DNA of 45,414 bases, taken from the UHGV virus genome UHGV-0206544; one strand, 5' to 3'. The translations under genes and the position numbers were made by a program. The notes below the pieces were generated by a model that did not search any database, had not been told where the DNA came from, and was given only the letters and a program-made list of their open reading frames with translations. This DNA is from a virus. Shown here piece by piece: positions 5,759 through 21,423 of this stretch (positions are counted from its first letter, which is position 1; the number at the start of each line of letters is the position of its first letter).

Positions 5759-6114
5759 CATACAGAACCATGCAGTTAGACACGTCTACGTGGGACTTAA
5801 CACTGGATGGAAACGGGAATATTGCCATTGCTGATGAACTGTATTCAGTGGCTCAGGATGTTGCCAGTGCGTGCCTGGTATTCTCTGGAGAATGCTATTA
5901 CGACAACACTCTGGGAATTCCGTGGAAATCCGATGTGCTAGGCAAGCGTCCAACACCAGGGTACGTGGCACAGAAGATGCAGACTGAGGCCAAAAAACTA
6001 CCAATCGTTGATCAAGCACTGGCTACGGTCTTTTTCGATAAAAACACTCGTCGTATGCGCGGCACAATTCGCGTTACGGACATCAACGGTAATACAGCGA
6101 CGGCAACGATATGA
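5755..6114 (+). CDS. baseplate protein (gpW/gp25-like position)
   Basis: 119 aa, ATGA-coupled to its neighbours, lies before the baseplate J-like gene. Confidence 0.45.
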   Translation: MTYRTMQLDTSTWDLTLDGNGNIAIADELYSVAQDVASACLVFSGECYYDNTLGIPWKSDVLGKRPTPGYVAQKMQTEAKKLPIVDQALATVFFDKNTRRMRGTIRVTDINGNTATATI

Positions 6115-7340
6115 CGACTTTAGAAACTGCTGTACCTGATGTAACCATCACTGAGAATGGCCTGTCCGTCCCAGATATTTCTGATGTTCTTGCGGGTCGC
6201 CTGACAGATATGACAACCGCTCTAGGTGGTGGTGCCAGTCAATCGTTAAGCTCACCACAAGGGCAGATCGCCCAATCTGATACTGAAATCATCGCGCAGG
6301 AGTACGACAAGCTTCTATGCCTGTTTAACCAGGTTAACCCTGATTACTCAACTGGAAGGTTTCAGGATGGGATTGGTCGAATTTACTTCATGGATCGCAT
6401 CTCAGCGCAGGGGACGGTGGTCACTGCAACTTGTATTGGTCAGGTAGGAACAACAATCCCTGCTGGAAGTTCTGCGGTAGACACAAGCGGATATATTTAC
6501 CAGTCAATCGACAACGCGGTAATCCCATCGACTGGATCGGTTGACGTGCAGTTTATTAATACCACTACCGGCCCTATACCATGCGCAGCAGGGGCGCTTA
6601 ACCAGATTTACCGCGCAGTATCTGGATGGGATTCTATAACTAACCTCAGCCCGGGTGTTGTTGGTGTTGATGTTGAATCGCGGATTGCCTTTGAAACACG
6701 CCGCAGACAGTCAGTGGCGAGAAACAGCAGGAATCAGGATGCTTCTACGCTATCTGCGCTTCTTGCTACCAATGGCGTGCTGGATGCTTATGTGTGGTCT
6801 AACAGAACTGCTTCCACAGTAAACCAAGGGACGACAAGTTTTCCTGTTCTTGCCCATTCTATTTACATTTGTGTGTATGGAGGAGCGGATTCTGATGTAG
6901 CAGAGGCGATATTCAACACCTATAACCCTGGTGCCAATCTCAATGGAGATACCACATACACGATTTATGATAACGTAAACTACACCGCACCATATCCCTC
7001 TTATGACATGCAATGGCAGAAAGCCACACCAACGCGAGTCTATTTTAATGTTGAGCTTGATAGTTCTCTTAATCCTCCAAGTGATATCACTCAGCAGGTT
7101 AAAACGATGATCGCATCAGTATTTAATGGTGGTTACGAGGGAATTGGCAAGGCTCGAATCGGGGCGACTATAAACTCCGGAAAGTACTACGCACCAGTAA
7201 TTTCAATCTCTCCCGATACGGTGGGGATTCTTACGCTGGAAGTCTCTCTGGATGGAACTGCGTACGGTCCAGCGGTAACCATGGGAATAGACCAGGTACC
7301 AACCATTCAGGAATCTGACATAACTGTTACATTATCGTAA
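6111..7340 (+). CDS. baseplate J-like protein
   Basis: 409 aa with size and position typical of baseplate J (follows a gpW-like gene, precedes gpI-like and tail fibre genes). Confidence 0.55.
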   Translation: MTTLETAVPDVTITENGLSVPDISDVLAGRLTDMTTALGGGASQSLSSPQGQIAQSDTEIIAQEYDKLLCLFNQVNPDYSTGRFQDGIGRIYFMDRISAQGTVVTATCIGQVGTTIPAGSSAVDTSGYIYQSIDNAVIPSTGSVDVQFINTTTGPIPCAAGALNQIYRAVSGWDSITNLSPGVVGVDVESRIAFETRRRQSVARNSRNQDASTLSALLATNGVLDAYVWSNRTASTVNQGTTSFPVLAHSIYICVYGGADSDVAEAIFNTYNPGANLNGDTTYTIYDNVNYTAPYPSYDMQWQKATPTRVYFNVELDSSLNPPSDITQQVKTMIASVFNGGYEGIGKARIGATINSGKYYAPVISISPDTVGILTLEVSLDGTAYGPAVTMGIDQVPTIQESDITVTLS

Positions 7341-9209: not shown

Positions 9210-9446
9210 CTAATAGGATTAGCTCAACATGACTAGATAAGTGCGTTTTGCGCTAACGCAATGGCTATGCGTGTGACGTCGATGAATCATAAAACAGTAG
9301 CAACATGCGGCGATATTTGTTGCCTGTGCATGACTCATTGCCTATCATGAGTATGCAGTTGTAAGGTTGCAATTATTGACCACATGTCTAGGTTTTTTAA
9401 TTAAACCATAGCTATCGTCACGATGATACTGAAAACAGGAGAGAGC

Positions 9447-10100
9447 ATGAAGCTGTATGGCATTGTTGGTGCAGGTGGGTATGGAAGAGAAGTCATGCCA
9501 CTTGTACAAGAGGTAATGTTAAAATCTCATCTTTCAGCGGACACGCAATGTGTATTTGTCGTTGAGAATGCCAAAGAAAAAGTGGTTAATGGATTTCCCG
9601 TTTTATCACCAGAAGAATTTTTCGCAATTCCGGCCGATGAAAAGTATTTTAATGTGGCAATTGCAGCCAGCAGGGCAAGAGAAAGGATTTCAACTTTATT
9701 TATAGACAAAGGGATCCTCCCTTTTTCCGTAACTAGTAACCATTCAGTAATTTACAGTACATCAGAAATTGGCGAAGGAGCTATTATTAATCCCTTTGCA
9801 ATTATATCTGCAAATTCAAAAGTCGGCAGATTTTTCCATGCAAACGTATACTCATACATAGCTCACGATTGTATTATAGGGAATTACGTTACATTTGCCC
9901 CTGGTGTAAAATGCTGCGGAAATGTAGTTGTTGAGGACCACGCCTACGTTGGTGCGGGTGCAGTAATCAGACAAAATACAGCAGAACAACCAATTATCAT
10001 TGGCGCAGGAGCGGTAATAGGAATGGGAGCCATTGTCACAAAGAGCGTTCCTGCAGGAATAACTGTTGCTGGAAACCCAGCCAGACCGCTAATAAAATAA
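9447..10100 (+). CDS. hexapeptide-repeat acetyltransferase, NeuD/PglD-like family (moron)
   Basis: Start at ATG 9447 with SD AGGAG. N-terminal MKLYGIVGAGGYGREV (Rossmann-like) and C-terminal left-handed beta-helix hexapeptide repeats (IGEGAIINP...IGNYVTFAPGV...VGAGAVIRQN...IGAGAVIGMGAIV). AT-rich relative to neighbours; a TTGACC-17-AATTAA promoter candidate at 9376-9404. Confidence 0.8.
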   Translation: MKLYGIVGAGGYGREVMPLVQEVMLKSHLSADTQCVFVVENAKEKVVNGFPVLSPEEFFAIPADEKYFNVAIAASRARERISTLFIDKGILPFSVTSNHSVIYSTSEIGEGAIINPFAIISANSKVGRFFHANVYSYIAHDCIIGNYVTFAPGVKCCGNVVVEDHAYVGAGAVIRQNTAEQPIIIGAGAVIGMGAIVTKSVPAGITVAGNPARPLIK

Positions 10101-10833: not shown

Positions 10834-11997
10834 TTAACCATTTCCGCCAGCCTCCATATTTCCCTCGTGGGACATATTTGGGACATCATCGTTAAAAATC
10901 GAGTCAATTTGCTTCGCATGTTCGGTAAGGTGATTGGGCGCGAGATGAGCATATCGGCGTACCATTTCTATCGATTCCCAGCCACCCATCTCCTGAAGAA
11001 CAGACAACGGTACACCTGACTGAATAAGCCAGCTTGCCCATGTATGTCTGAGGTCGTGAAACCGGAAATCTTCGATACCTGCACGCTTACATGCAGACTT
11101 CCATGCGCGACCATCATCGACTCTCATTTTCCTGACTGCTGGAGTGACAGAACCATCAGGCCTTCTTCCTGCCTTTGTGTGTACGAACACAAATTTATGA
11201 TGATTACCTATCTGGTCACGCAGAACCTTACATGCGGTATCATTCAGCGCTACGCCAATAGCCCTGTTTGATTTGCTGTCTTCCGGGTTAACCCATGCCA
11301 CCCGGCGCTGCATGTCTATCTGTTGCCACTCCAGATTGATGATGTTCGAACGCCTTAAACCTGTTGCCAGCGCAAACTTGACGACAGACTTTAACGGCTC
11401 CGGACATTCATCAATCAGCCTTTTTGCTTCATCCTTCTCCAGCCATCTAACCCGCTTATTGCGCACTGCCGGTATCTTGATGACAGGTGCTTTCTCAAGC
11501 CATTTCCAGTCGCGTTCTGCCGCTCTCAGAATGGCTTTCATCAGTGCAAGATGTTTGGCTTTGGTAGAGGTTGTTACAGACTTAGCAACATAATCCGGGT
11601 CTGGATTTCCTTTCTTCCTTGCTGCTGCCACCTTTGCCTTCCATATCTCCAGATGACTCCGGTTATGCATCCTGCTGACTGCTGAGTAAATCCTTGCCTC
11701 AGTAATATCCTTCAGTCTCACTCCTTCAAATTGCTCAAGCCAGAATCCCATCCGGCCTTTATCTGTATCGAGCGACTTCTTATCTGATTTCTCTTCAATC
11801 CAGCGTAAACACGCCTCCTCAAAAGTCACATCAGGAAAGTCACCGAGTCTGTCTACTCGCCAGAGTTCGGCTTTTCGCTTGTCGTGCAACTCCTGCGCTT
11901 GCCGTTTGTCCGCTGTGCCAAGAGATTCCTTAATTCGCTTCCCGCCCGGGAGCGAGTACGAGGCGTACCATATTTCACCTCTGCGGAAGATGGACAT
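10834..11997 (-). CDS. int: tyrosine site-specific integrase
   Basis: 387 aa. C-terminal catalytic region with [11 protein letters not shown]...VRRYAHL (R..HxxR..Y); N-terminal arm-binding region. Adjacent to the tRNA fragment. Confidence 0.9.
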
Positions 11998-17612: not shown

Positions 17613-17807
17613 CTATGCGGCCTTTAGTTTCTCCAGCTCCCTGGCAATCATTGCCGTGGTTCTTATTGCCCATCTATCGACAATCTTTCCATCCTCTCTA
17701 ACAAGAGCCATTTCCTCAGGTTTAACCATGCATTCAGCATCAAGCTTGCAGCCTTTGCATTTCACATAGCGACCGCACCATTGATTAGTATCAATAGTCA
17801 TAGTCAT
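17613..17807 (-). CDS. small Cys-rich hypothetical protein
   Basis: 64 aa containing CxxC...CxxC. Confidence 0.3.
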   Translation of the reverse strand: MTMTIDTNQWCGRYVKCKGCKLDAECMVKPEEMALVREDGKIVDRWAIRTTAMIARELEKLKAA

Positions 17808-17884
17808 ATGGATAGTCCTGGTATTGGCTCATGTCATCCTGTGGATGCTCGTCAAACTCCTCAAATTCTTCTTCCATATTCACC

Positions 17885-18166
17885 TCAAATAAGTGGCTTG
17901 CTGCCTAATTTCATTTTCTGCCGTCCTGCACAAGTCACTCCCATTTCACGGGTTGGCTTGCTGTAGTACAGGAGATTAGTTTTCTGCGGTGCTTCCTGCT
18001 CTTTCTTATCGCGCAGACTTCCGAGCGAAGTGGCTCTGTCTACCCGATGCATATCGTTGGCTTTCTGTAACGCATTCTGAGAAGCTTCAGCGCGTCGCTT
18101 TGCAATCAGCTCACCACGCTTCAGATAACGCCGTGTAACGCTGTTGTGTGCGGTAAAGTTGGTCAT
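17885..18166 (-). CDS. N-like transcription antiterminator
   Basis: First gene downstream of the pL/oL candidate. N-terminal arginine-rich motif TRRYLKRGELIAKRRAEA. SD GGAGGA. A boxA-like element lies upstream. Confidence 0.45.
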   Translation of the reverse strand: MTNFTAHNSVTRRYLKRGELIAKRRAEASQNALQKANDMHRVDRATSLGSLRDKKEQEAPQKTNLLYYSKPTREMGVTCAGRQKMKLGSKPLI

Positions 18167-18371
18167 ATGTCCTCCGGTGGTTGCTTTGGTGGTGTGACGG
18201 ATGGAGTCGAACCATCTTCCATCGGTGCGATGCCGATTGCAGTACGCGCAGCGTTCCGCTACATGACTAGTATTTTCACAGTCGCCTATCTGCTAGCTCG
18301 CCGTTGAGCTTCGTCACACCCCAAAGCAACATCCTTTGGTCTCCCACAAGGGCGGGAGAAGTAACCCCATC

Positions 18372-18384
18372 AATGTTAAAGAGC
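18372..18384 (-). promoter_or_regulatory. nutL boxA-like element (GCTCTTTAACATT on the minus strand)
   Basis: Matches the boxA consensus (T/C)GCTCTTTAACAA. A candidate boxB hairpin TCTCCC-N8-GGGAGA lies just downstream. Confidence 0.4.
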
Positions 18385-18430
18385 TGAGACTCGATTCCTT
18401 GTCTCGGTGGTGCGTCCTGCTGATGGAACA

Positions 18431-18496
18431 AACAATAGCACTGAGTATTGTTAATAGCAATGCGTATTGAATCTAATTAATAGCAAATGCTATTAA
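18431..18496 (-). promoter_or_regulatory. oL/pL region: repressor operator repeats TTAATAGCAATGC and TTAATAGCA-AA-TGCTATTAA, with a pL candidate (-35 TTGCTA, -10 TATTGT on minus)
   Basis: Inverted-repeat half-sites TAATAGCA. The same motif recurs at oR (21141-21179). Confidence 0.5.
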
Positions 18497-18751
18497 ACAG
18501 TTGATAGCTAAATGAATTTAGTTTTTAAGAATTTGTATGAGGTGAGGATGTGAGCGAAAAATGAGCGAATTTTTGGTATGAGAGGATTAGCAATGCCGCA
18601 GTAACGCTATCAGAAGATGTGTCTGATTGTGGGTGGCGTTGTTTTTTTATGGTGACTGACGGGATTCGTACGGAATTAGAAATATGGACAGGGGGGGGTG
18701 ATGAAGACCGGTTACATTGTATTGAGCTTGCCGTTACGCCGATGGAAGGGT

Positions 18752-18780
18752 GTGCAAAAGAAAACCCGGAATGACCCGGG
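18752..18780 (-). terminator. rho-independent terminator ending the cI-cassette transcript (tImm-like)
   Basis: Minus strand reads CCCGG-GTCATT-CCGGG followed by TTTTCTTTTGC, 16 nt after the lipoprotein stop. Confidence 0.55.
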
Positions 18781-18795
18781 CATCTATTTGTTTTG

Positions 18796-19176
18796 TTAAT
18801 CAGCCCAACCTGATTTTGTGTTGATAGTTGACTCGGCCATGGTGTACTTCTGCACCTTGTCGTCTTTAAAGAGAATGGTCAGCTCTTTTTTGGTGCCGTT
18901 TGTTCCGTTATGGAACAGACCATAAAAAGGGATAAAGGAAGTGCCGTTAACTTTAACTTTGGCGAAGGCATACTTCCAGATTTCGTTACCGCCATCAGTG
19001 TAAGAAACAGCGTCAGGAGATCCGAACACTGACTTCACTTCAGCTTTGGTGGTTTTCCCCTCCTGGATTTTCGACTGAACGCTTGTTTCAGTCTCGTTTT
19101 TCAGTTGCTGATTTCCTGAAGATGCACATCCTGCCAAGGTTACTGTCAAAGCGACTGCCAGAGCTATTTTTTTCAT
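18796..19176 (-). CDS. outer-membrane lipoprotein with BamE/SmpA-OmlA-like domain
   Basis: Start at MKKIALAVALTVTLAGC (lipobox LAGC). Motif KTTKAEVKSVFGSPDAVSYTDGGNEIWKY resembles the SmpA_OmlA fold signature. Confidence 0.55.
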   Translation of the reverse strand: MKKIALAVALTVTLAGCASSGNQQLKNETETSVQSKIQEGKTTKAEVKSVFGSPDAVSYTDGGNEIWKYAFAKVKVNGTSFIPFYGLFHNGTNGTKKELTILFKDDKVQKYTMAESTINTKSGWAD

Positions 19177-19267
19177 TTCTAAGGTTCCATTGATTGCAAT
19201 CGGAAGCATCTTAACATTGTGTTTTGCACTGATAAAGAAAACCCGGCTTGGAGGCCGGGTTAGGGAA

Positions 19268-20242
19268 TTATTTGTTAACTTTAGCTAGCGCTGCTTCATA
19301 CGTTTCTTTTTCTTCAAACAGTTCAGACACTGCAAGTACCTTACCTATTTGTTGTCTTAGTGCTCTAACGCCAACCTCTTGTAAGAACTGATGGATTTTA
19401 TCTCCACGCTTCCCGTTTTCATCTCTGCTTTTTTTAGCAAGATCAAGTATCACGCCCTGACTTTTCGCCAATGGTGTGTAAATCTGCTCTATCGTTAATT
19501 TGCTGAAAAGGAAAGGGCGTCCTCTTTCTGGTTTGTTGAGTTGGTATATTTTGTACCATGCCTCATACAACTCATCTGGGAACTCTTTTTCATATTGTCT
19601 TGCCTCTTCCCGTACGTAGGCTTTGAAGGAATCAATAACTTCCTGTACTTCAGGCCTGTATCCTGCAATCGCATAACCAAGCCCCTTGAGCCCAGCTTTC
19701 ATTGATGCGGTAACAAGTCTTTGAGCAAGACTGGCAGATTTTGATCTTGAAGGTGGCAGAGCGCCAGCTCGGTCAGCATTAATCATTGCTGTAGCTATAT
19801 CACCGATAAGGGCAATATCGTAACCGTGCGCCTCGTCAGCCAGTGGATTTGGTGCTGAGTTTGGGACCGGACTTCGCCATTGAAAAATAAGCGGTTTTTG
19901 GAATTTTTCCAGCAGTAATGGATCAACAAAATCTGCCATATAATTTGTGTTTAGAAAACGGTCTACATCCCTGCCATGCTCACCGATTCCTAGTAATTTA
20001 GCTAGACCTGTTTTACTAACTACAACCGTTTTGTCATTATCATCAAGTACGTAACATTCTGCATCAATGCCGAAATCATCAACGAAGTTGCCCTTTCTGA
20101 TCGCTCTTAGTGGCTTACCTTCCCAGCGTTTTGCCGCTGCTTTTTTAGCAATCTCGGTACGCTGTTCTTTAGTAAGTGATTTTGCTCGAGCTACTCCACC
20201 TTTCGCCTTTCCGGTAGGTTTTATGTTCTCTTCATTAGACAT
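19268..20242 (-). CDS. P63C-domain-like protein in the immunity region (start alternatively at 20275)
   Basis: 324 aa from MSNEENIKPTGKAKGGVARAKSLTKEQRTEIAKKAAAKRW. AT-rich. Located between cI and oL. Confidence 0.45.
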   Translation of the reverse strand: MSNEENIKPTGKAKGGVARAKSLTKEQRTEIAKKAAAKRWEGKPLRAIRKGNFVDDFGIDAECYVLDDNDKTVVVSKTGLAKLLGIGEHGRDVDRFLNTNYMADFVDPLLLEKFQKPLIFQWRSPVPNSAPNPLADEAHGYDIALIGDIATAMINADRAGALPPSRSKSASLAQRLVTASMKAGLKGLGYAIAGYRPEVQEVIDSFKAYVREEARQYEKEFPDELYEAWYKIYQLNKPERGRPFLFSKLTIEQIYTPLAKSQGVILDLAKKSRDENGKRGDKIHQFLQEVGVRALRQQIGKVLAVSELFEEKETYEAALAKVNK

Positions 20243-20351
20243 ATGCAAGCACCATGTTGTGAAATGTGCTTGCATTTAATCACTGTATAAATAAACAAGC
20301 AAGCATTATTAATTAAAATATGCATGCAATTGATAATAAAAAAGGCCGCTT

Positions 20352-20378
20352 CCATGCGACCTCTTATCACCAATCCCA
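20352..20378 (-). terminator. possible terminator/attenuator between cI and the downstream cassette
   Basis: Minus strand reads GGTCGC-ATGGAA-GCGGCC followed by TTTTTTATT. The stem contains one G.U pair. Confidence 0.35.
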
Positions 20379-20392
20379 CCTAGGTCGGTATA

Positions 20393-21097
20393 TTAACCAT
20401 GCTTTCTGTATGTCTGTGGCATGCTACCAATAACCTTCCCGAAAACAAATATTCGGTTCATTTCATCCCCTTCTATCGGGTCCCAAGCTGTATAATTCTT
20501 GTTATCAGATATGACTAGGAGCTTGTCTTTTACTTTTTGCAGACGTTTAACATGGGATGTCTCATCGTAGATGAATGCATATATCCCGTCCCCATCAAAA
20601 TGCTGAACACTTATATCGACGAATAGCAAGTCGCCTGGCTCAATCGTGCCAGACATACTGTCTCCTCGAACGTTGATGATCCTAATCTGCTCTGCTTTTC
20701 TACCATTGAACATCCGGCGGGCATCTTCAACTGAATATTCCACGGATTTTAGAACCTCTACAAACTCGCTATTGATTGCGCCAGGTCCTGCACTCACACA
20801 AAAATCAAGCGCCTCAATGCGGAAAGTGTCGGAAGATACACCCTCTATTTTTTGCTTAGGGAGATATGGCGTCTGTCCATCATCTCGCATGGGGCCAGCA
20901 CCTGTAGAAAGCCACTCTGTTCTTACTCCAAGAGCGTTAGCAATTTCAACAATCTTAGTCGATCCGCGAGCATTGCCACTAGTAAGCCTCCAGATAGTTG
21001 GCTGCGCAACTCCAGACGCCTTAGCCAGAGCGCCCTGTGACATTCCTGATAATTCCATCGCCTGATTCAGGCGTTCTGCAAGGGTTTCTTTTTTCAT
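20393..21097 (-). CDS. cI: CI-like prophage repressor (HTH_XRE + S24 LexA-like peptidase)
   Basis: N-terminal HTH (LAERLNQAMELSGMSQGALAKASGVAQPTIWRL). C-terminal S24 domain with GDSM nucleophile and VKRL lysine. Confidence 0.85.
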   Translation of the reverse strand: MKKETLAERLNQAMELSGMSQGALAKASGVAQPTIWRLTSGNARGSTKIVEIANALGVRTEWLSTGAGPMRDDGQTPYLPKQKIEGVSSDTFRIEALDFCVSAGPGAINSEFVEVLKSVEYSVEDARRMFNGRKAEQIRIINVRGDSMSGTIEPGDLLFVDISVQHFDGDGIYAFIYDETSHVKRLQKVKDKLLVISDNKNYTAWDPIEGDEMNRIFVFGKVIGSMPQTYRKHG

Positions 21098-21140
21098 AAA
21101 TTTAAATGTATACGCTTGCGTATTGATGGTCAAAACACGT

Positions 21141-21179
21141 TTAGCTATTGCTAATGCCAATACTCATTGCTATTATTGA
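21141..21179 (+). promoter_or_regulatory. oR/pR region: operator repeats (TTAGCTATTGCTAATG, CATTGCTATTATTG) overlapping pR (-35 TTGCTA, 17-nt spacer, -10 TATTAT)
   Basis: Shares the CATTGCTATTA / TAATAGCAATG motif with oL. Lies between the divergent cI and cro genes. Confidence 0.5.
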
Positions 21180-21207
21180 TGTTGTGCAATACCTAAAGGA
21201 ATTAATA

Positions 21208-21423
21208 ATGACCAATAAAGCTATTCAAAAAGCTGTTGCCATAGCTGGAAGCCAGCAGAAACTCGCATCTCTATGCGGCGTTAAGCAGCCAACTGTATGG
21301 CGATGGTTGCATGGTGGTGGCATCGATGCTCGGTACATCACTGCAATCGTTAAGGCGACAGGAGGAAGGGTAAAGGCCCATGAACTTAGGCCAGATTTAG
21401 CAGAACTCCTTGCCGCAAGTTAA
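21208..21423 (+). CDS. cro: Cro-like repressor
   Basis: 71 aa with HTH (QQKLASLCGVKQPTVWRW). Divergent from cI. SD AAAGGAA. Confidence 0.7.
   Translation: MTNKAIQKAVAIAGSQQKLASLCGVKQPTVWRWLHGGGIDARYITAIVKATGGRVKAHELRPDLAELLAAS

Follow-up and report, generated by a model that had tools for sequence, protein, structure and literature searches.

Two genes lie side by side on the minus strand of the virus genome UHGV-0206544, between a cI-type repressor gene and the left operator (oL). One encodes a P63C-domain protein of 324 amino acids (aa), and the other a lipoprotein precursor of 126 aa. The window analysed here is the whole 45,414-nucleotide stretch, and all feature coordinates follow its numbering. 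The two genes are unrelated, self-contained, and separately mobile morons placed next to each other in the slot between cI and the leftward promoter (pL), and they are not a functional pair. They are regarded as independent because each is found alone in the cI slot and elsewhere, with its own promoter and terminator. A moron, in the lambdoid definition, is an autonomous promoter-gene-terminator unit between conserved genes, and neither gene differs from this. Both have their own promoter and terminator, a guanine-plus-cytosine (GC) content below that of the surroundings, a patchy distribution among related phages, and several hotspots of insertion. New are a conserved four-box putative operator of the P63C family, a possible distant kinship of this family with the phage defence protein BstA, and carriage of the gene beside IS1-like transposases. 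Taken as a whole, the explanation offered here, in which independent morons encode a BstA-like P63C protein and an envelope-acting lipoprotein, is an even call.

Two transcription units in the cI-pL slot

The region contains the following features, listed from the repressor gene toward oL.

20393-21097, minus strand: cI-type repressor gene, helix-turn-helix (HTH) domain plus S24 peptidase; Pfam Peptidase_S24 (E 2e-16), HTH_3, and Phage_CI_repr
20333-20365, minus strand: intrinsic terminator directly 3' of cI, GGTCGCATGGAAGCGGCC followed by a T-run; RNA fold −19.7 kcal/mol, z −6.1
20243-20329, minus strand: putative P63C promoter/operator region, four ATGCAAGCAT boxes in the orientation +,-,+,-
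19268-20242, minus strand: gene for the 324-aa P63C-domain protein; Pfam P63C, phrog_2384
19233-19261, minus strand: intrinsic terminator of the P63C gene, CCCGGCC-N6-GCCGGG plus a T-run; −14.4 kcal/mol
19208-19236, minus strand: lipoprotein promoter, -35 TTTATC (19231-19236), 17-nucleotide spacer, extended -10 TGtTAAGAT
18796-19176, minus strand: gene for the 126-aa lipoprotein precursor, lipobox LAGC, BamE/OsmE/BLIP-type domain
18755-18781, minus strand: intrinsic terminator of the lipoprotein gene; −13.2 kcal/mol; coincides with the end of the 92% match to phage S107
18600-18774, plus strand: frameshifted remnant of a small convergent open reading frame (ORF), related to BTP1_037 by frame comparison (MCRIVGDVVF...QLQCMKLAV)
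about 18445-18500, no strand assigned: left operator oL, three exact TTAATAGCA half-sites at 18451-18496

Read along the minus strand, the order is repressor gene, terminator, an 87-bp AT-rich region, P63C ORF, terminator, a promoter-like spacer, lipoprotein ORF, and terminator. Beyond the last terminator lie the decayed small convergent ORF and then the oL half-sites. Sites related to these half-sites are also present in the right operator (oR, 21140-21180). The repressor likely starts at the ATG at 21097 instead of the TTG at 21160 called by the ORF finder (sequence 21080-21100). A preliminary description of this region had located two minus-strand ORFs that separate oL from a cI-type repressor gene, and the ORF map, the Pfam matches, and the TTAATAGCA sites agree with it. 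The AT-richness that it ascribed to the gene pair was recovered as well: the GC content of the two-gene region is 0.426 compared with 0.478 for the window, and lies within the lowest 5% among stretches of the same size. The terminator after the lipoprotein gene and the hairpin after cI, both already noted, were also found by RNA folding and a terminator scan. These two hairpins and the third one, between the genes, were each more stable than 200 of 200 shuffled sequences. The folded segments span 20340-20365 after cI, 19240-19261 between the genes, and 18764-18781 after the lipoprotein gene. An Rfam scan of positions 17800-21300 found no RNA family.

The same description had treated the pair as a single cassette bounded by terminators. 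Here it must be corrected. The genes form two transcription units, not one cassette, because the third terminator (19233-19261) lies between them and each gene has a conserved promoter region. The slot itself is the accessory site between cI and N/pL that had been proposed, and bstA of the Salmonella prophage BTP1 sits at exactly that place, directly downstream of the repressor (PMC8585504).

The distribution of the two genes was examined in 80 genome and 80 viral loci fetched for the P63C family, and in 80 viral loci plus several annotated phages fetched for the lipoprotein. Individual loci are referred to by L numbers. The two genes adjoin each other only once (L104) in the 167 loci fetched for either gene, so the co-occurrence that had been suggested as a check on the pair amounts to one adjacency. 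The lipoprotein gene is present in none of the 80 viral-contig P63C loci and in none of 87 P63C loci, with the exception of L104, which stems from the lipoprotein scan. Likewise, a P63C gene adjoins the lipoprotein gene in 1 of 88 lipoprotein loci, again L104, where the P63C allele is 53% identical. The closest P63C homologues (98% and 89% identical) stand alone between cI and N. The lipoprotein module alone (18746-19259, terminator to terminator) is 92% identical by megablast in the Salmonella phages S107, S135, and S137, where it occupies the cI-N slot beside genes other than P63C.

The paired module proposed earlier, with a cytoplasmic P63C sensor or effector and an envelope lipoprotein acting together in abortive infection (Abi) or exclusion, is very improbable: although the genes are adjacent on the same strand in the window, are both probably expressed in the lysogen, and were juxtaposed a second time, independently, in L104 with its divergent P63C allele, the counts above, the separate promoters and terminators, the presence of each gene alone in the cI slot and in other slots, and the adjacency of the lipoprotein gene to BstA, KilA-N, Rha, Arc-like, and ParA-like genes all speak against it.

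The terminator type CCCGGCC-N6-GCCGGG plus T-run is a recurrent junction between unrelated genes of the cI-pL slot (L004, L006, L017-L021, L104, and many lipoprotein loci), and hairpins of this type stand after P63C genes and before lipoprotein genes in many loci. The hairpin after cI (GGTCGC...GCGGCC) likewise recurs as a junction in the slot. It precedes the P63C gene behind several different repressor alleles (L004, L006, L017, L019-L021, and L104) and is present in 14 of the 80 viral loci. Both junction hairpins look like shared linkers for module exchange.

The P63C gene, its four boxes, and its possible relatives

The larger ORF is P63C-like, as previously described. Residues 207-293 of the 324-aa protein match the P63C domain (PF10546) with 48.6 bits against a gathering threshold of 26.1, all 45 aligned homologues match the same domain, and the protein belongs to phrog_2384 (E 8e-81). 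Two lengths had been given for it. The length of 324 aa, with the start at ATG 20242, is supported by the N-termini of homologues and by the conserved upstream region, while 335 aa is not.

Four boxes of the sequence ATGCAAGCAT occupy the upstream region of the P63C gene in the window.

20320-20329: box 1 (degenerate)
20297-20306: box 2, contains the -35 TTGCTT (20297-20302)
20266-20275: box 3, abuts the -10 TTAAAT (20274-20279)
20243-20252: box 4, ends at the start codon

This layout is common to the enterobacterial P63C loci, whatever the slot. A forward box is followed by a reverse box containing the -35 (TTGCTT or TTGCAT), a TAnnAT -10 abutting a third (forward) box, approximately 13 nucleotides with the Shine-Dalgarno sequence, and a fourth (reverse) box at or overlapping the start codon. 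In the upstream sequence of 83 loci (21.6 kb in total), 199 exact copies of the 8-mer TGCAAGCA were counted (9.2/kb), compared with 26 in the remaining 908 kb (0.029/kb). The corresponding densities of exact boxes in 79 viral loci are 13.9/kb upstream and 0.017/kb elsewhere, and the upstream enrichment is approximately 300- to 800-fold. Four exact boxes are present in 32 loci, 31 of which have them in the order +,-,+,- with modal spacings of 23, 31, and 24 nucleotides. The boxes keep their orientation and spacing as they accompany the P63C gene through taxa as distant as Enterobacterales, Acidobacteriota, and Firmicutes. No further box cluster is present elsewhere in the 45-kb window.

The enrichment of the boxes upstream of the P63C gene points to autoregulation. 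Binding of the boxes by the P63C protein is the simplest reading because this protein is their sole constant partner, the only component common to all box contexts. We infer that it is a sequence-specific DNA-binding protein that probably regulates its own gene through the boxes. It would bind two inverted-repeat operators, composed of the four boxes, and repress its own promoter. With boxes over the -35, next to the -10, and up to the start codon, the level of the protein in the lysogen would be low and steady. Boxes 3 and 4 can also fold into an RNA hairpin (−15.3 kcal/mol) that would hide the ribosome-binding site. This was rejected as the principal explanation of the element because the same boxes recur upstream of the -35, which leaves boxes 1 and 2 unexplained, because the -10 abuts box 3, most of which would be untranscribed, and because variant loci show mismatches and not compensating changes.

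The N-terminus of the P63C protein is a basic helix hairpin (residues 12-39, KGGxARAxxLTxxQRxxIAxxAAxxRW). The AlphaFold2 (AF2) model, with a mean predicted local distance difference test score (pLDDT) of 74.6, contains a well-predicted alpha/beta domain (residues 45-142), and its C-terminal half, which includes the P63C domain, is helical. The protein has no hydrophobic segment (maximum KD19, Kyte-Doolittle hydropathy over 19 residues, 0.95). A Foldseek search of BFVD with the model gave weak matches only, mostly to Mx8 p63, Bro-N, KilA, and antirepressor proteins, with E of 0.07-3 for the Bro-N and KilA matches. A PDB sequence-profile search and an NCBIfam search gave no match. Direct hhalign of the family against a KilA-N protein was negative (0.15%), and HepS (PMC13043305) was checked as a relative and is unrelated. 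Worth noting in the family alignment is that residues ~225-300 exist in two alternative C-terminal versions, for example LNKPERGRPFLFSKLT...LDLAKK and LNRPEKGRPIRFGQLTNMQ...LEQIRA. Their combination with different N-terminal halves suggests intragenic recombination.

BstA (ST313-td) acts by abortive infection and is found at phage DNA undergoing replication (PMC8585504). It is turned off by aba, a 63-bp DNA element that begins 29 bp upstream of bstA and extends 34 bp into the gene (PMC8585504). The bstA gene lacks its own terminator and promoter, and the cI promoter is thought to be shared (PMC8585504). A family-against-family hhalign of P63C and BstA gave a probability of 42% and E 2.6e-4 over 170 colinear columns, and the alignment covers BstA residues 31-206, including the KilA-N-like domain. 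The 22 reversed or block-shuffled controls reached a probability of at most 3.5%, and the two reversed ones among them aligned 18 and 24 columns. The result is suggestive of remote homology and is not proof of it.

Further likenesses concern placement and architecture. Both genes lie directly downstream of a prophage repressor (for P63C in the window, in L004-L006, and in 14 of 80 viral loci), although many other P63C copies lie elsewhere. The proteins are of similar length (307 aa for BstA and 324 aa for P63C), and both are cytoplasmic with an N-terminal alpha/beta domain and a helical C-terminal half. A DNA element spans the 5' end of the gene in each case, aba in bstA and the four boxes, from approximately -90 to the start codon, in P63C. 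Both families also extend across many phyla at approximately 50% identity. The differences are that no Pfam domain is shared, with PF10546 in the P63C protein and PF26567 annotated in BstA homologues; that the P63C gene stands behind a strong terminator and has its own putative operator-controlled promoter, whereas bstA lacks a terminator and a promoter of its own; and that aba is 63 bp long with CCCGCC direct repeats, whereas the P63C element consists of four 10-bp inverted boxes. BstA itself gave no match in the Pfam copy searched, which cannot score PF26567.

In 17 E. coli genomes, megablast matched the P63C gene alone, at ~86% identity. The prophage is P22-like in both loci that were looked at, L002 and L003, where the gene lies between a gene-16-type ejection protein and mnt/arc/ant, the sieA position of P22. 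Sorted by neighbour clusters, approximately 24 of the viral P63C loci are at the P22 immI (sieA) position, and approximately 24 lie between antiterminator Q and the holins. In 14, a cI-type terminator is located upstream, and in 10 of those 14 a repressor gene was detected upstream. The copies in the Q-holin slot (L198, L235, L239, L240, L255, and ~20 other viral loci) occupy the stx position of the Shiga toxin (Stx) phages, and in ~14 Q-slot loci a gene for a 123-aa signal-peptide protein is nearby on the opposite strand. These positions, in the cI-pL slot and between gene 16 and mnt, match those of lambda rexAB and P22 sieA, as does the probable expression from the prophage. No sequence or architectural similarity accompanies the match, and PADLOC gave none. 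RexB and SieA reside in the inner membrane, in contrast to the soluble P63C protein.

A divergent IS1-like DDE transposase gene (Pfam DDE_Tnp_IS1) adjoins the P63C gene in 33 of 87 loci, all of them outside Enterobacterales. These loci come from Acidobacteriota, several classes of Proteobacteria, Abditibacteriota, and one Firmicutes metagenome-assembled genome. The distance between the two genes is mostly 30-140 bp, or they overlap slightly, and the boxes lie in the shared intergenic region. Nucleotide similarity among these loci (range L022-L092) is confined to a unit of approximately 2.2 kb (for example, L025:4947-7307 and L029:5000-7270), which in L025 is flanked by 48-nucleotide imperfect inverted repeats. 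In 20 of the 33 loci, the P63C gene converges on an ORF of 80-90 aa (for example, L029:6968-7234). The C-terminus of this ORF reads KGGxARAxxLTxxxRxxIAxxAAxxRW, as at the P63C N-terminus (window 20120-20212), with 64% identity over 31 aa. The shared basic motif might mark a competing or antagonist partner. The P63C gene and its boxes also seem to be moved, as cargo, by a small transposon. Such carriage fits an autonomous function of the P63C protein (defence, addiction, or element regulation) and argues against its dependence on the lipoprotein.

By analogy with BstA, the P63C protein would engage the DNA of a superinfecting phage and block its replication, and the boxes would be its operator and perhaps, while the prophage replicates, a decoy for self-immunity as well. 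Any anti-phage activity of the protein is a guess. In the fullest form of this proposal, the P63C family is a cross-phylum sister group of BstA, made up of single-gene Abi proteins whose boxes are both operator and aba-like decoy, and is carried at three prophage hotspots and on IS1-like transposons. We put this forward only tentatively. A possible, if doubtful, alternative is that the P63C protein is not a defence protein and is instead a regulator of the Bro/KilA/antirepressor type, acting on its own gene, on the divergent transposase, or on the repressors of other prophages. Four operator-like boxes that overlap the P63C promoter, their sharing with the transposase gene in the 33 loci, and the Foldseek matches to Bro-N, antirepressor, and repressor-domain proteins are all expected of such a regulator. 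The window, however, offers it no other visible target in the phage, since no second box cluster is present; the gene also occupies slots known for exclusion and Abi genes (the sieA position and cI-N), and a regulator leaves the remote colinear similarity to BstA aside.

The lipoprotein and its contexts

The smaller gene encodes a 126-aa lipoprotein with the lipobox LAGC, as previously described. It starts at ATG 19176 with the N-terminus MKKIALAVALTVTLAGC, and Ala occupies position +2. The signal peptide, MKKIALAVALTVTLAG-C, conforms to the lipobox pattern [LVI][ASTVI][GAS]C. Gly16 and Cys17 do not vary within the family, and the +2 residue is Ala (Val in 2 of 26 homologues) and never Asp. 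A sorting rule based on the +2 residue of lipoproteins is established for E. coli, and because of the Ala at this position the protein is predicted to be sorted to the outer membrane. All homologues are 126 aa long, and they are 73-98% identical across prophages of Citrobacter, Enterobacter, Salmonella, and E. coli. The family has 1859 representatives at E up to 1e-3, and the protein matches phrog_3135 over its full length (E 6e-44).

The likeness to BamE that had been proposed is supported at the level of the fold. The AF2 model (pLDDT 75.7) matched several structures with a BamE-type fold. In sequence, the score against Pfam SmpA_OmlA/BamE is 23.2 bits, equal to the cut-off of 23.2, and distant members of the family score from 16 to 35 bits. 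NCBIfam gave no BamE match, with matches at the level of the signal peptide only, and a PDB sequence-profile search matched no solved BamE and returned only signal-peptide noise. The fold is a generic periplasmic protein-binding module. The lipoprotein differs from BamE, OsmE, and BLIP (SmpA_OmlA fold) in its identity of 22% or less and in an invariant aromatic loop, FIPFYGLFHNG (residues 81-91), which is the obvious candidate for an interaction surface.

In the extended -10 of the lipoprotein promoter, the TG is located at 19215-19216 and the hexamer at 19208-19213. A TG(T/A)TA(A/G)GAT extended -10 is kept approximately 35 nucleotides before the ATG in copies from the cI slot and from tail modules alike, often with a TTGACC -35, and the 92% match to phage S107 includes the promoter. 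The gene follows a repressor in approximately 30 loci, in 16 of them directly, with a gap of ~49 nucleotides and no terminator. Its neighbours in the cI slot elsewhere are a 306-aa protein without a Pfam domain, a ParA-like ATPase, or a BstA homologue. The order cI, BstA homologue, lipoprotein was observed in the viral contigs L106, L113, and L120 (for example, L106:4942-5910 and 6001-6378), and the BstA homologue in L106 is 94% identical to BTP1 BstA, the product of a proven Abi gene. Tail-module copies lie upstream of the tape-measure gene, with immediate neighbours that include KilA-N and Rha proteins, and in a few other loci an Arc-like protein precedes the lipoprotein. A conserved partner was considered and rejected, the upstream neighbours being many unrelated clusters.

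The lipoprotein is most likely an envelope-acting exclusion factor. It would be exported, lipidated at Cys17, and placed on the inner face of the outer membrane. Synthesis in the lysogen would start from its own extended -10 promoter, and in other phages transcription would read through from cI. It would then bind an outer-membrane protein from the periplasmic side and alter what can enter, with an effect in the style of Cor or Llp superinfection exclusion and not as a replacement of BamE. Cor (phi80/N15/HK022/T1) and Llp (T5) are phage lipoproteins that block the FhuA receptor. Like the present protein, they are small, predicted at the periplasmic face of the outer membrane, encoded by accessory genes close to immunity regions or tail genes, and made in lysogens. 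Cor-type exclusion genes are located near immunity regions and in tail modules, and recurrence at these places together with lysogen expression is typical of exclusion lipoproteins. A relationship to Cor, raised in the preliminary description, is not supported by the profile search: phrog_1119 matches with E 1.5e-4 only over residues 12-74 (signal peptide and N-terminus), and not over the full length.

The lipoprotein could also be a true BamE mimic that acts on BamA/BamD and alters outer-membrane protein assembly or RcsF-type signalling, and through these, indirectly, receptor display or envelope stress. This is unlikely. The fold would suit such a role, but the gene is encoded by prophages and not at the chromosomal bamE locus. 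A role in host fitness or virulence with no anti-phage effect, such as serum resistance of the Bor/Iss type or protection from envelope stress, is rather improbable as well. The constitutive-looking promoter, the 73-98% conservation across prophages of four genera, and the fold shared with the stress lipoprotein OsmE would suit it, but no similarity to the Bor family was found and the positions of the gene match those of Cor-type exclusion genes.

Flanking features and significance

The window resembles a complete temperate phage, with an integrase gene (10834-11997), a baseplate J-like gene, terminase, portal, a DUF3383 protein, and a lambdoid regulatory core. The BTP1_037-like remnant (18600-18774) marks the pL-proximal edge of the slot. 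It lies between the lipoprotein terminator and oL, and its GC skew is strongly positive (+0.38). Intact convergent small ORFs (56-75 aa, some of them mutually unrelated) occupy the same position in BTP1, S107, L004, L010, and Citrobacter prophages. The protein in the position of Cro (21148-21423, plus strand) matches Pfam YdaS_toxin (E 2.6e-17), as in Rac-type prophages and unlike lambda Cro. A hexapeptide-repeat acyltransferase with a PglD-like N-terminal domain is encoded at 9423-10100 (plus strand), between the tail/baseplate genes and the integrase gene, and is possibly a conversion gene that modifies surface polysaccharide.

Several observations weigh against the explanation as a whole. 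Literature searches on the P63C/PF10546 family and on BamE-like/SmpA-OmlA prophage lipoproteins yielded no experiment or relevant paper bearing on either family, and PADLOC-DB v2 contained no defence-protein family that matched either protein at E up to 0.1; the preliminary description had likewise said that the pair is not known as a characterised defence module. The link to BstA is in the twilight zone: a single BstA sequence compared with the P63C family gave a probability of just 6.7%, and none of the 45 P63C family members matched Pfam KilA-N (PF04383) or Bro-N (PF02498) at E up to 1. Approximately half of the non-enterobacterial P63C loci adjoin an IS1-like transposase gene, and regulation of the element would explain the boxes without defence. 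Phages of more than one tail type carry the lipoprotein, a distribution that fits poorly with simple blocking of the receptor of the carrier itself, and the BamE fold gives no pointer to the target, since BLIP, OsmE, and type VI secretion system immunity proteins share it although their roles differ widely.

The cI-pL slot has been proven to supply prophage defence genes (rexAB and bstA), and it houses two widespread uncharacterised families. The idea of one system is replaced by two separate ideas, each of them testable. If neither gene has a phage-related phenotype, both are ordinary morons. The analysis equips the P63C family with a precisely predicted binding site, the layout of its promoter, and BstA as a candidate relative. 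If the envelope-acting reading of the lipoprotein is true, the BamE fold would be a third structural class of phage lipoproteins that act at the outer membrane. If the P63C family is a sister group of BstA, the gene and its boxes would be a self-contained defence or addiction cartridge that moves on transposons, and a defence gene with its own self-immunity DNA would be far more widespread than the BstA family alone and mobile on small IS-like elements.

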